Of a stretch of 64,000 nt of DNA, positions 43,478 through 45,541 are shown piece by piece. Location: the sequence record PQ471515.1. One strand, written 5' to 3'. Position 1 is the first letter of the stretch. Every line of letters begins with the position of its first letter. Origin of the DNA: Escherichia phage Turkey3. A program made the position numbers and the translations under genes. The notes beneath the pieces were generated by a model. The model saw only the letters and a program-made list of their open reading frames with translations, was not told the origin of the DNA and did no database searches.

Positions 43478-43879
43478 ATGACTACAATCGATGATATCTA
43501 CAGTACTATACGCAATATGAGTACAGATAGAAAAGTCTTTGGCGACAAAGAAAAGTCCAAATGTTATGGTATCGATTCTTTTGATATTATTTCATACGAA
43601 TATAATAACAACGGGACAAGTTCACTAAACATTGTGTGTCCACGAGATCCAGAAAATAATTTCATGTACGTTGAAATTAACAATGATGGTATGTTCTTTA
43701 CTAAAGTATATAAAGGTGGGAAAGAATACGAACCAATCGAAGTAATGAATGAAGAGAAATTCTTCCAAGAAGATACCATCATCAATCTTGGATTTAGTTA
43801 CAATGACTATCAAGTACTGGATCATGATTTTAAACGATACTATAATGGTTTTCTAAAGGAGTTAACGATTTACTTATGA
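43478..43879 (+). CDS. hypothetical protein
   Basis: Complete ORF. Confidence 0.5.
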   Translation: MTTIDDIYSTIRNMSTDRKVFGDKEKSKCYGIDSFDIISYEYNNNGTSSLNIVCPRDPENNFMYVEINNDGMFFTKVYKGGKEYEPIEVMNEEKFFQEDTIINLGFSYNDYQVLDHDFKRYYNGFLKELTIYL

Positions 43880-45114
43880 AAAACAATTTTCTAGAACAAA
43901 CTATTGTGAAACACTTAGCTGGTTCACAGGCGTATGGCACAAGCACACCAGAAAGTGATACAGATTATCGTGGTATCTTCCTTGCAAACAAAGAATATAT
44001 CCTAACTCCTTTTTTTAATGTTAAGGAAGTTTCAGATACTTCTGAAGAAGATACTAAATTTTATGAAATCAATCAGTACTTAAGTCTGTATACTGAAGCT
44101 AACCCAAACATTCTTGAATCACTATGGGTTAAACCGGAACACATCGTAGAAAGTACTGAAATCTATGACTATCTACGCTCATTCAATCAGCAATTATTGA
44201 GTTCAAAGATTGCACACTCATACAGTGGATATGCATACAATCAGGTTAAGCGTATGTCTAATCACCACGGCTGGCTCGATAAGGAACGAATTGCTGAACG
44301 TAAACTAAATGAAATTTTAGAAGAACATCCAGTTGACGAAGTACTTTCATGGATGTATGATACATTCCCGCAGTATTTGGTTGACCGTTTGAATAAATCC
44401 AATCTTCACCCATTCAATGCTACAAAAATTGATTTTGAAAAATACATGCGTGATACTTCATTACAATTAGTTTCAACACAAGCATTGAAACAATATCATT
44501 TTGTACGTTTAGTACATAATTATAGTACTGATAAAGTATTAGATCGTGATTTCAATTTATTGAATTACATTTCTGGCTATGAACTAATCCATTACGGTGA
44601 AAACATCTTTGGGGTAATTATCAACCCGAATGAAAGTACAGTGAATGATGATGGTTCACTACGTTATTTCAACAAAGAACGTACTTCGGAAGAATTGAAA
44701 GTTCGTCCTGAACTCATTGTAAAATTCAATGAAAAAGAATACAAAGAAAATAGTGAGAACCGTAAGAGTTATCACAAATGGAAGCAGAATCGTAATGCCA
44801 AACGTGCTATTCTTGAATCACACCACGGTTATGACTGCAAACACGCAATGCATACAGTCAGGCTACTGAATACAGCACAGGAAGCACTTGAAACTGGTAT
44901 CATCCAAGTTCATCGCCCTGATGCTGCTATGTTGATGGACATTCGTAACGGGAAGTGGTTGTATCAAGAAGTTATGGATTATTTCAACGAAAAGGTTGAC
45001 TACATCCGAAATGTGGCGTATCATAAGACCCATCTACCGAAGAAACCAAACATAAAGTTGGCTGCGAAGGTACTATTAGATATCCGTGAAATGCAATGGT
45101 ACAGTAAAAAATAA
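43876..45114 (+). CDS. Pol-beta-superfamily nucleotidyltransferase-fold protein (412 aa)
   Basis: hG[GS]x10DhDh signature (LAGSQAYGTSTPESDTDY); helical C-terminal region with R-x5-H. Confidence 0.5.
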   Translation: MKNNFLEQTIVKHLAGSQAYGTSTPESDTDYRGIFLANKEYILTPFFNVKEVSDTSEEDTKFYEINQYLSLYTEANPNILESLWVKPEHIVESTEIYDYLRSFNQQLLSSKIAHSYSGYAYNQVKRMSNHHGWLDKERIAERKLNEILEEHPVDEVLSWMYDTFPQYLVDRLNKSNLHPFNATKIDFEKYMRDTSLQLVSTQALKQYHFVRLVHNYSTDKVLDRDFNLLNYISGYELIHYGENIFGVIINPNESTVNDDGSLRYFNKERTSEELKVRPELIVKFNEKEYKENSENRKSYHKWKQNRNAKRAILESHHGYDCKHAMHTVRLLNTAQEALETGIIQVHRPDAAMLMDIRNGKWLYQEVMDYFNEKVDYIRNVAYHKTHLPKKPNIKLAAKVLLDIREMQWYSKK

Positions 45115-45124
45115 GAGGATTGTT

Positions 45125-45541
45125 ATGCTAAACGAACAAATCAAAGACGCACTACGTGTACTGAATCGCGAAGTTAACCGCATCCATAAAAGTACTGATC
45201 GTTATAAACTAATGCATGAACTTAGACTTTCGTTGGAAGCTATCAATAATGGCGAATGGTATCTTGAACCAGAATATCGCACACGTGAACTAACTGATGT
45301 TGAAAAAGCAATTGTCAAATTCATTACAAGTCGCGACAAAAATGCATCCGAAAAAGATGTATCAATGAACTTCCATCTTACTAAATGTGAAGTCGTTGAA
45401 AAATTTAAATTCGATTGGCTTGACTGGATTGAAATGATCATGGAACTTGAAGAAGAATTCAAAGTTGAAGTTGATTTAGAATACGAGAATGAAAACACTA
45501 AACTGTATAAACTCGTAGATCATATTCAAAAAATGTTGTAA
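45125..45541 (+). CDS. acyl-carrier-protein-like protein with Ser replaced by Trp
   Basis: Track ORF from 45086; ATG 45125 after AAGAGGA; C-terminal FDWLDWIEMIMELEEEFKVEV parallels ACP ADSLDTVELVMALEEEF. Confidence 0.5.
   Translation: MLNEQIKDALRVLNREVNRIHKSTDRYKLMHELRLSLEAINNGEWYLEPEYRTRELTDVEKAIVKFITSRDKNASEKDVSMNFHLTKCEVVEKFKFDWLDWIEMIMELEEEFKVEVDLEYENENTKLYKLVDHIQKML

Follow-up and report, generated by a model that had tools for sequence, protein, structure and literature searches.

What becomes of a protein that keeps the shape of an acyl carrier protein (ACP) once the residue that defines such carriers has been replaced, and does the nucleotidyltransferase encoded immediately upstream of it have a part in the answer? 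ACPs are defined by the serine to which phosphopantetheine is attached. In a 64,000-nucleotide stretch of DNA from Escherichia phage Turkey3 (sequence record PQ471515.1), analyzed as a whole and referred to below as the window, an earlier note had singled out two adjoining open reading frames (ORFs), the first for a nucleotidyltransferase-fold protein with a C-terminal region reminiscent of HEPN domains and the second for an ACP-like protein with tryptophan at the attachment position, and had suggested that the latter might act as a mimic, a decoy, or an acidic adaptor. An ORF check of the window finds both, on the + strand. The phage belongs to the genus Asteriusvirus (a classification taken from near-identical records that we inspected), i.e., it is a RaK2-like jumbo coliphage, and by record classification the phages of this genus have genomes of ~350-385 kb. 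We think it fairly probable that the two genes are neighbors with separate functions, one encoding an RNA-repair enzyme of the RlaP family and the other a cofactor-free, ACP-shaped binding module.

An ACP fold with tryptophan at the attachment site

The longer, mechanically called version of the second ORF starts at GTG 45086, inside the nucleotidyltransferase gene. The true start is ATG 45125, which gives a protein of 138 residues (45125-45541) and is preceded by a Shine-Dalgarno-like AAGAGGA (45113-45119) that overlaps the upstream stop codon (TAA, 45112-45114); the GenBank annotation of the near-identical phage vB_Ec-M-J has the same 417-nt version of the gene. With this start, the two genes lie 10 nt apart (45115-45124) on the same strand. 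The features of the second gene are as follows.

45113..45119, + strand: Shine-Dalgarno-like AAGAGGA, 5 nt before ATG 45125 (direct sequence reading)
45125..45541, + strand: ACP-derived protein, 138 residues, phrog_18343 (phrog match; vB_Ec-M-J annotation)
45125..45289, + strand: family-specific N-terminal extension, residues 1-55, two long helices predicted (AlphaFold2, AF2)
45290..45538, + strand: ACP helical-bundle domain, residues 56-138 (AF2, Foldseek, profile search)
45416..45418, + strand: TGG codon of Trp98, at the position of AcpP Ser36 (alignment)
45425..45427, + strand: TGG codon of Trp101, at the position of AcpP Thr39 (alignment)

Used as a single query against the PDB, the protein retrieves ACPs only, the best match being E. 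coli AcpP (E = 0.003), and a profile built solely from nine phage sequences matches solved ACPs at E ~1e-10. This phage-only profile replaced a first one that we discarded as circular, its alignment having included E. coli AcpP. Among phage protein families, the match to phrog_18343 reaches 2.5e-43 over residues 15-151 of the longer ORF, and that to phrog_5934 ("acyl carrier protein") 3.3e-8. The score against the Pfam PP-binding family (PF00550) stays below the gathering cutoff (13.4 versus 20.8 bits); seven of nine family members match PP-binding at E <= 1, the best at 1.1e-8.

An AF2 model computed from 33 sequences forms the ACP helical bundle, with a predicted local distance difference test (pLDDT) score of 89-96 over residues 61-138 and of 83 for residues 51-60. 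When this model is compared with the PDB by Foldseek, the top 50 matches are all ACPs, with a probability of ~1.0 for the best and target-normalized template modeling (TM) scores that are mostly 0.6-0.77. The ACP-like domain of the earlier note is thus borne out by profile, model, and structural comparison alike, and the structure prediction that it had proposed as a check gives no ground for refuting the likeness. Its second observation, the exchange of the attachment serine for tryptophan, is equally sound: the protein contains FDWLDWIEMIMELEEEF, in which Trp98 (TGG, 45416-45418) falls, by alignment, at the position of E. coli AcpP Ser36. The ACP domain has an isoelectric point (pI) of 4.1-4.7. 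In the N-terminal extension, AF2 places helices at residues 2-17 and 23-41; M1, R26, and Y27 are conserved family-wide, and the extension has no match in Pfam.

Decay of the attachment site in one branch of a jumbo-phage family

Close relatives of the window phage are numerous: seven Escherichia phage records, including Ecwhy_1, WPEC3, fEgEco12, and vB_Ec-M-J, are 98.6-99.0% identical to it over 2.9 kb around both genes, and phage TH47 is 96.8% identical over the same 2.9 kb. Searched exhaustively with the ACP-like protein, a set of 1.84 billion representative proteins gave 22 matches at E <= 1e-3. The best-scoring full-length ones (~129-141 residues) align end to end and have a common extended architecture, and wherever their genomic context was inspected, it proved syntenic with RaK2-like phages. 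Counting isolates as well, members belong to Asteriusvirus, Alcyoneusvirus (RaK2, K64-1), and Mimasvirus (CBB, GAP32, XbC2), with further members in Eneladusvirus (Serratia BF, Yersinia fHe-Yen9, and Erwinia pEa_SNUABM phages), Erwinia phage Kaldavass, and syntenic metagenomic relatives. The family is a small one, known from RaK2-like jumbo phages only, and the window protein has all its hallmarks, namely a ~55-residue extension joined to an ACP domain, a length within ~130-141 residues, and a gene directly upstream of the Rz/Rz1 spanin genes.

A neighbor-joining tree of 29 members divides the family into group A (Mimasvirus, Eneladusvirus, Kaldavass, XbC2, and relatives; n = 13) and group B (Asteriusvirus, Alcyoneusvirus, relatives, and the phage studied here; n = 16). 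In group A, the attachment position is serine in 13/13 members, and position 118, the equivalent of AcpP Asp56, is aspartate in 13/13. Judging from the structure of AcpS with ACP from B. subtilis, Asp56 neighbors the attachment site and presumably contributes to recognition by AcpS. In group B, the attachment position holds Ser in five members, Trp in three, Thr and Asp in two each, and Asn, Arg, Glu, and Lys in one each; its entropy of 2.73 bits makes it the sixth most variable of 138 positions, and position 118 varies as well. This variable site is flanked by D97 and D100, both invariant across the 29 members, and is followed by Trp101, which is present in 16/16 members of group B and has Tyr, Met, Glu, Leu, or Thr, never Trp, as its counterpart in group A. 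The codon at the attachment position is TCA in ph0011 and CBB, ACA in RaK2, AAC in Turkey5, and TGG in the window phage. Parsimony requires at least eight changes there and, since group A is invariant at this position, all of them must have occurred within group B. Helix II tells a different story from the attachment site: the residues matching AcpP D35, L37, D38, E41, M44, E47, E48, F50, and E53 are kept, and E103, M106, E109, F112, and E115 are nearly invariant over the family.

The earlier note had taken orthologs that retain the serine as evidence against its idea. Such orthologs do exist (in ph0011, in several metagenomic Asteriusvirus-like relatives, and in all Mimasvirus and Eneladusvirus homologs), so that the objection applies in the letter; the full pattern still favors loss of carrier function in group B, because eight residue types occupy the site after at least eight replacements and constraint has been lost at the Asp56 equivalent, with purifying selection kept throughout. 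A tblastn search with E. coli AcpS found no AcpS-like gene in any RaK2-like phage, Sfp-type enzymes being outside that search.

The selection in question is seen in ratios of nonsynonymous to synonymous divergence (dN/dS) of 0.24-0.31 for the ACP-like gene, the lower value coming from the Trp-bearing pair of window phage and PBECO4, whose proteins are 70% identical, and in an ORF that is intact in every phage genome examined. With values of 0.05-0.07 for the nucleotidyltransferase and 0.07-0.18 for the spanins, the ACP-like gene is constrained, yet evolving faster than its neighbors. Between PBECO4 and ph0011, the ACP-like proteins are 71% identical, compared with mostly 95-98% for the flanking proteins (Rz, 85%), and dN is ~10 times that of the nucleotidyltransferase; dS is higher too, and the drop in identity together with the raised dS indicates recombinational replacement at the ACP-like locus. 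Across genera, the nucleotidyltransferase remains 57-71% identical and the ACP-like protein 18-30%.

A Ser-bearing member of the family, the Eneladusvirus ACP, has been detected in virion preparations by liquid chromatography-tandem mass spectrometry, in a study that also remarked on its proximity to the spanins (PMC7760394). We give this detection little weight, because neither the text nor the printed tables of the structural-proteome paper on phAPEC6 (PMC7247149) were found to mention gp313c, the ortholog in that phage, and because "structural protein" labels are also attached to genes at spanin positions in related phage records.

The upstream gene encodes a nucleotidyltransferase of the RlaP family

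The first of the two genes has the following features.

43876..45114, + strand: RlaP-family (PF10127) Pol-beta nucleotidyltransferase, 412 residues (Pfam, phrog, homolog, and AF2 evidence)
43912..43965, + strand: catalytic signature hG[GS]-x10-DxD, residues 13-30 (invariant residues in 49 homologs)
44050-44052, + strand: codon of the third carboxylate, D59 (invariant in 49 homologs)
44293..44475, + strand: ~60-residue insertion, residues ~140-200 (alignment occupancy)
44731..45102, + strand: helical C-terminal domain, residues 286-409 (AF2 model)

The encoded protein carries LAGSQAYGTSTPESDTDY and matches Pfam RlaP (PF10127) with 62.9 bits and E = 4.7e-17, against a gathering cutoff of 23; this is its only significant Pfam match, CitX/MdcG similarity not being found. 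The match to phrog_388 (2e-75) is carried by a 351-position profile that covers residues 3-411. We detected 528 homologs and, among the matches listed (120 of the 528), PF10127 is present in all but one protein, which is truncated. In an alignment of 49 homologs, G16, S17, D28, D30, and D59 are invariant, and the Pol-beta nucleotidyltransferase fold proposed in the earlier note is therefore confirmed by family score and by an unbroken set of hG[GS], DxD, and third-Asp residues. Judged by its sequence, the protein is clearly a member of the already characterized RlaP RNA-repair family, which makes this half of the finding one of a known kind: one more jumbo-phage RlaP.

The AF2 model (pLDDT, 91.6) consists of an N-terminal alpha/beta domain, a middle region, and the helical C-terminal domain (residues 286-409), in which R306, N307, R310, E314, D320, K322, H326, and R329 are invariant across homologs. 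A search of the PDB with the nucleotidyltransferase sequence gave no match and thus no direct superposition on PfRlaP. Residues ~140-200 have an occupancy of 0.45-0.52 in the 49-homolog alignment, as against ~1.0 elsewhere; they form a ~60-residue insertion, predicted to be mostly helical, that is found in about half of the aligned RlaP homologs, namely those near the length of the phage protein.

The earlier note had compared the C-terminal region with HEPN domains on account of an R-x5-H motif, here R310...H316. The region is indeed helical and appears HEPN-like in fold. R310 is invariant, but H316 is found in 3/49 homologs (Gln, Lys, and Leu predominate), and the region therefore has no HEPN catalytic motif. 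We rejected the reading of this domain as a HEPN nuclease, the similarity being at the level of the fold; by homology, it would instead be the substrate-cleft domain of RlaP.

RlaP of Pseudomonas adds one or two nucleoside monophosphates to RNA 3'-OH ends, with a preference for damaged RNA, and restores aminoacylation of over-trimmed tRNA after repair; among E. coli macromolecules, RNA is its sole substrate (PMC12776372). The family, to which T4 NrdC.11 belongs, has three strictly conserved catalytic aspartates, and in the crystal structure of PfRlaP the nucleotidyltransferase and helical domains jointly form a conserved cleft (PMC12776372). Among the repair nucleotidyltransferases of jumbo phages, RlaP is the most prevalent, and its occurrence follows that of their RNA ligases (PMC7824862). 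The window contains further enzymes of this kind.

6326-7468: T4 Rnl1-type RNA ligase
8291-9223: T4-type Pnkp kinase-phosphatase
58098-59213: CCA-adding/poly(A)-polymerase-type enzyme

The T4-style RNA-repair set is thus complete in the window but scattered, and is not clustered with the RlaP gene. By homology, the nucleotidyltransferase would extend damaged RNA at its 3'-OH by one or two nucleotides, and the phage Rnl1 ligase and Pnkp could then restore tRNAs cut by host nucleases, which would give the phage enzyme a role in RNA repair.

As a separate observation, a metagenomic contig (L012; Logan ERR4503900_27503, 4771-5998) has a 1-nt insertion that splits its RlaP gene exactly at the G[GS] codons. 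The called product has 287 residues (P0126), the rest of the gene is full length, and the split is probably an assembly error.

A binding module, a host decoy, or a carrier

In the account that we think fairly probable, the two proteins act separately, and the ACP-like family has taken different courses in its two branches. In the Mimasvirus/Eneladusvirus branch, where Ser and the Asp56 equivalent are invariant, it looks like a true carrier. In the Asteriusvirus/Alcyoneusvirus branch, the attachment site has decayed, with the Ser and Asp56 positions varying and Trp fixed at +3, and the acidic helix II, hydrophobic core, and N-terminal extension of the same proteins are kept by purifying selection. 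The protein of this branch would work without phosphopantetheine, as a permanently "apo" ACP-shaped module that docks through helix II, and perhaps through the N-terminal hairpin, on an ACP-recognizing partner; docking would sequester the partner, compete for it, or let the protein serve as an adaptor. On this evidence, the ACP-like protein probably serves to bind partners and does not carry acyl groups.

Several points weigh against this account. Serine is still present in five group B lineages, where host AcpS could perhaps modify it, and the core function of the family may never have been cofactor-dependent or may differ between lineages. The idea of a binding module is read from a pattern of sequence conservation, and the N-terminal extension is modeled with moderate confidence only (pLDDT, 63-75 for residues 1-50). 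On the side of the nucleotidyltransferase, the Pseudomonas enzymes behind the RlaP biochemistry are only distant relatives, and the phage protein has the ~60-residue insertion besides. Finally, the two genes appear to share a transcription unit in each of the genomes examined and, in this phage, are closely spaced for translation, and some cooperation between their products may exist.

The strongest alternative gives the protein a host target. Lacking the serine, it would mimic apo-AcpP and rival host AcpP for access to ACP-dependent enzymes or regulators (PlsB, LpxA/LpxD, the Fab enzymes, AcpS, MukB, and IscS are candidates), so that envelope lipid synthesis or another ACP-dependent process is shut down during takeover. 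The positions through which AcpP contacts its partners are kept (D97, L99, D100, E103, M106, E109, E110, F112, E115), the host's own AcpP is the best single-sequence match in the PDB, and the gene diverges much faster than its neighbors (71% versus mostly 95-98% identity, with the ~10-fold difference in dN given above). Fast divergence is frequent in genes involved in conflict; here, however, the higher dS suggests recombinational replacement alongside fast evolution. According to a review, excess ACP arrests growth of E. coli by inhibiting glycerol-3-phosphate acyltransferase, apo-ACP being the stronger inhibitor, a concrete precedent for a decoy, but host AcpP makes up 0.25% of soluble protein, and a competitor would need very high expression or affinity (PMC3896788). 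Simple mimicry leaves unexplained a conserved 55-residue extension that has no counterpart in AcpP. Moreover, the relatives that retain the serine have the same helix II and the same extension, so that both features predate its loss. We regard a host decoy as rather unlikely and consider unlikely, too, the more specific proposal that one branch of RaK2-like phages has turned a phage-encoded carrier into a permanently cofactor-free ACP mimic in which Trp98 and Trp101 replace or occlude the prosthetic-group site and helix II competes with host AcpP.

Neighbors without a conserved partnership

The next possibility is that the two genes form a functional pair, either with the nucleotidyltransferase modifying the ACP-like protein, by nucleotidylation or by adding a nucleotide-derived prosthetic group, or with the latter as its regulatory subunit or antitoxin-like partner. 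There is precedent for the first in CitX and MdcG, Pol-beta-type enzymes that load the carrier proteins of citrate lyase and malonate decarboxylase. The two genes of the window are on the same strand, 10 nt apart, with the Shine-Dalgarno sequence of the second lying over the stop codon of the first, and in every genome examined a nucleotidyltransferase gene lies zero to five genes upstream of the ACP-like gene. The adjacency implied when the genes were presented as a pair did not survive comparison, however: they abut only in the group of the window phage, in ph0011, and in one metagenome contig. In PBECO4 and phAPEC6, two tail-fiber genes stand between them; in Turkey5, the same tail-fiber block is directly upstream of the ACP-like gene; and in RaK2, CBB, BF, XbC2, and Kaldavass, three to five genes intervene. 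These phages are collinear over long stretches, and their shared neighborhood therefore carries little weight. More distant RlaP genes of other phages are found between gp32/UvsX-like and UvsW-like genes with no ACP nearby, and T4 NrdC.11 is an RlaP as well; conversely, other phage ACPs (Ag3, Motura) have no nucleotidyltransferase neighbor.

The biochemistry and the rates of evolution point the same way. Only RNA served as a substrate of RlaP among E. coli macromolecules (PMC12776372), the ACP-like site offers no Ser acceptor in this phage, and the strong conservation of the nucleotidyltransferase (dN/dS, 0.05-0.07) is at odds with a candidate acceptor residue that is freely variable. Databases hold a single fusion of the two proteins (432 residues, BFVD A0A2Z5HFQ2, from phage CMSTMSU, MH494197.1, L013 1350-2648), in which the C-terminal two-thirds of the nucleotidyltransferase is joined to an ACP-like protein, with 100% identity over the ACP part. 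It arises from a 1-nt deletion: the A-run just ahead of the nucleotidyltransferase stop codon is one A short. The ACP C terminus is changed by a further frameshift, and this altered end recurs in protein cluster P0160; the record itself carries an UNVERIFIED flag and contains many fragmented genes. We judged the fusion to be a sequencing artifact caused by frameshift and rejected both a natural fusion and programmed frameshifting.

The junction between the two genes is itself a variable spot. PBECO4-type phages carry a ~3.5-kb tail-fiber block there (genes of 534 nt and 2790 nt; L002 6710-10279), of which phAPEC6 gp314c is a virion protein by mass spectrometry; the window phage and ph0011 have no such block. 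In Alcyoneusvirus, Mimasvirus, Eneladusvirus, and relatives, a gene of phrog_21561 (~187 residues, well conserved, 55-75% identical across genera, labeled "oxidoreductase" in two records) overlaps the start of the ACP gene, as seen in RaK2 (ORF008, L005 3441-4004), CBB (gp162, L006 3451-4020), BF (gp157, L015 3954-4529), XbC2, and Kaldavass. Family searches with it were uninformative, and it could be found neither in the window nor in any of the Escherichia phage records searched; we therefore rejected it as a conserved upstream partner that might account for the ACP-like protein of Asteriusvirus.

Transcription signals around the two genes, together with the genes downstream, are listed here.

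41812-41833, + strand: terminator-like hairpin, possible start of a unit with both genes
41823-41851, + strand: sigma-70-like promoter match (11/12), overlapping the hairpin at 41812-41833 (weak evidence)
45561..45567, + strand: CTAAATA motif between the ACP-like gene and Rz, candidate late promoter of the spanin genes (conservation in 11 genomes)
45595-45969 and 45966-46280, + strand: Rz/Rz1-type spanin pair (phrog_1152 "Rz-like spanin," 1.2e-27; weak LysC/Rz1 match)
46283-46894: HNH endonuclease gene, next after Rz1 (phrog_23285, 1.9e-113)
46903..46932, + strand: strong terminator-like hairpin, 13-bp stem and T-run, after the HNH gene, possible unit end

The hairpins at 41812-41833 and 46903-46932 bracket nine genes, from three paralogs through the HNH gene. 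The promoter count of the region is not above that expected from shuffled sequence, and the match at 41823-41851 is thus weak. CTAAATA or TAAATA is found ~25-30 nt upstream of the Rz start in 11/11 genomes compared (in the window, within the gap 45542-45594), a motif that resembles T4-like late-promoter motifs and that we take as a possible late promoter of the spanin genes. It is preceded by a GC-rich hairpin with a T-run in CBB, BF, XbC2, Kaldavass, and contig L011, not in Asteriusvirus or RaK2; in those five, the hairpin, standing after the ACP-like gene, would close the nucleotidyltransferase unit, in accordance with a functional pair. Co-transcription of the nucleotidyltransferase and the ACP-like gene is likely. 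Functional coupling of their products is unsupported, and a true partnership between them seems to us quite improbable.

Even less probable, in our estimate, is that the Trp98 allele is a neutral or decaying remnant of a carrier, with acyl or aminoacyl carriage (through host AcpS) surviving in Ser-bearing relatives. The serine does persist in 13/13 members of group A and 5/16 of group B, including the Asteriusvirus ph0011, the Pfam PP-binding match is found in 7/9 family members, and dN/dS is above that of the neighboring genes, points in favor of this reading. Yet a dN/dS of 0.24 between 70%-identical, Trp-bearing orthologs is a sign of ongoing purifying selection, a full-length ORF is kept in all examined genomes of several genera with non-Ser residues, and at least eight independent replacements have occurred with no loss of the gene. 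The variable site is, moreover, framed by a new invariant W101 and by invariant D97 and D100, which argues for changed constraint, not decay.

The Rz/Rz1 pair is the invariant downstream neighbor of the ACP-like gene, in the same order in all relatives. Lipoprotein acylation draws on phospholipid donors, not on acyl-ACP. That the protein acts as an accessory to lysis with the spanins, e.g., in the maturation or timing of the lipoprotein o-spanin, is the least probable of these readings: it would account for a position directly upstream of Rz/Rz1 in every genome examined, with insertions never falling between (the same proximity having been remarked on for Eneladusvirus phages, PMC7760394), but the hairpin in five genomes and the CTAAATA/TAAATA motif before Rz in 11/11 suggest separate transcription, the donors of acylation are the wrong ones, and half of the family would be unable to carry an acyl group.

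Genomic surroundings

The G+C content of the window is 31-38%, and in vB_Ec-M-J all annotated genes are on the + strand across most of the corresponding region. Just 3' of the terminator-plus-promoter-like site, three tandem paralogous genes (41875-43475; 188, 173, and 169 residues) match phrog_18641 and phrog_7868 and share the stretch D/N-R-K/R...E-x-K-Y-x-L-S-K; a different paralogous set (phrog_10375) occupies the equivalent place, after the nucleotidyltransferase, in RaK2, CBB, and BF. Family searches with the three upstream paralogs and with a 133-residue gene gave no functional match. Downstream, the hairpin directly 3' of the HNH gene (46903-46932) is the strongest terminator-like hairpin of the region. 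At ~22-26 kb of the window, the vB_Ec-M-J annotation (L009 22834-26180) shows adjacent Sir2 and NUDIX hydrolase genes with a PhoH-like gene nearby; this set, known here from that annotation, is related to NAD/ADP-ribose, and genes of this sort have been discussed in connection with conflict between phage and host.

Significance

The interest of the locus lies in the ACP-like protein: one lineage keeps the fold, helix II, and the N-terminal module under selection as the Ser and the Asp56 equivalent drift, and its sister lineage, group A, holds both of these residues invariant. This is a modestly novel and well-supported case of carrier-site loss under continued selection. Literature searches on Ser-less ACP-like proteins, or on phage ACPs as anti-defense proteins, returned nothing relevant, and the published remarks that they brought up on this family all concern the Ser-bearing Eneladusvirus protein (PMC7760394). 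Should the ACP-like protein prove to bind host partners of ACP, nature would have supplied a compact inhibitor, or probe, of the ACP interaction network, itself essential and a drug target, and a case in which a phage has turned a metabolic carrier into a mimic; were the mimicry itself borne out, it would represent a new class of phage host-takeover or anti-defense protein that imitates a central metabolic cofactor protein. If the partner is a phage protein, it would mark a module conserved in all >300-kb enterobacterial jumbo phages. Either way, databases label the Asteriusvirus and Alcyoneusvirus copies "acyl carrier protein," "acpP," or "D-alanyl carrier protein 1," names that claim more than is known and are misleading.

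Comparison with known systems

The nucleotidyltransferase is like RlaP in its Pfam score well over the cutoff, in its hG[GS]...DxD and third Asp, and in having its nucleotidyltransferase domain N-terminal to a helical one (in the AF2 model). The same genome encodes an RNA ligase and Pnkp, ~35 kb away from its gene and in a different operon. The protein differs from about half of the aligned RlaP homologs in having the ~60-residue insertion at residues ~140-200. Compared with HEPN proteins and with the MNT/HEPN (type VII) toxin-antitoxin systems, it is without a conserved Rx4-6H motif; in RlaP, furthermore, a single polypeptide contains both domains, which share a conserved cleft, and the phage locus has no separate toxin gene.

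Closely comparable to the ACP-like protein are the Ser-retaining phage ACPs of group A, such as CBB gp163, GAP32_159, BF gp158, and fHe-Yen9 g153/g156. Homology is clear, the architecture of extension and ACP domain is the same at ~135-140 residues, and the gene is likewise directly upstream of the spanins and downstream of an RlaP gene. Those proteins, unlike that of the window, have DSLD and the Asp56 equivalent in 13/13 and no Trp at +3, and the phrog_21561 gene that overlaps the start of their genes was not found in the Escherichia (Asteriusvirus) records searched.

With E. coli AcpP, the ACP of type II fatty acid synthesis, the protein shares the helical-bundle fold, an acidic pI in the ACP domain (4.1-4.7), and, almost residue by residue, the acidic helix II D-x-L-D-x-x-E-x-x-M-x-x-E-E-x-F-x-x-E. 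It departs from AcpP in having Trp98 in place of the attachment Ser, Leu118 in place of Asp56, an extra Trp at +3, a 55-residue helical N-terminal extension, and a Pfam PP-binding score under the gathering cutoff. Lacking the serine and scoring below the Pfam threshold, yet keeping the fold and helix II, the protein is best described as ACP-derived, and probably not as an ACP in function.

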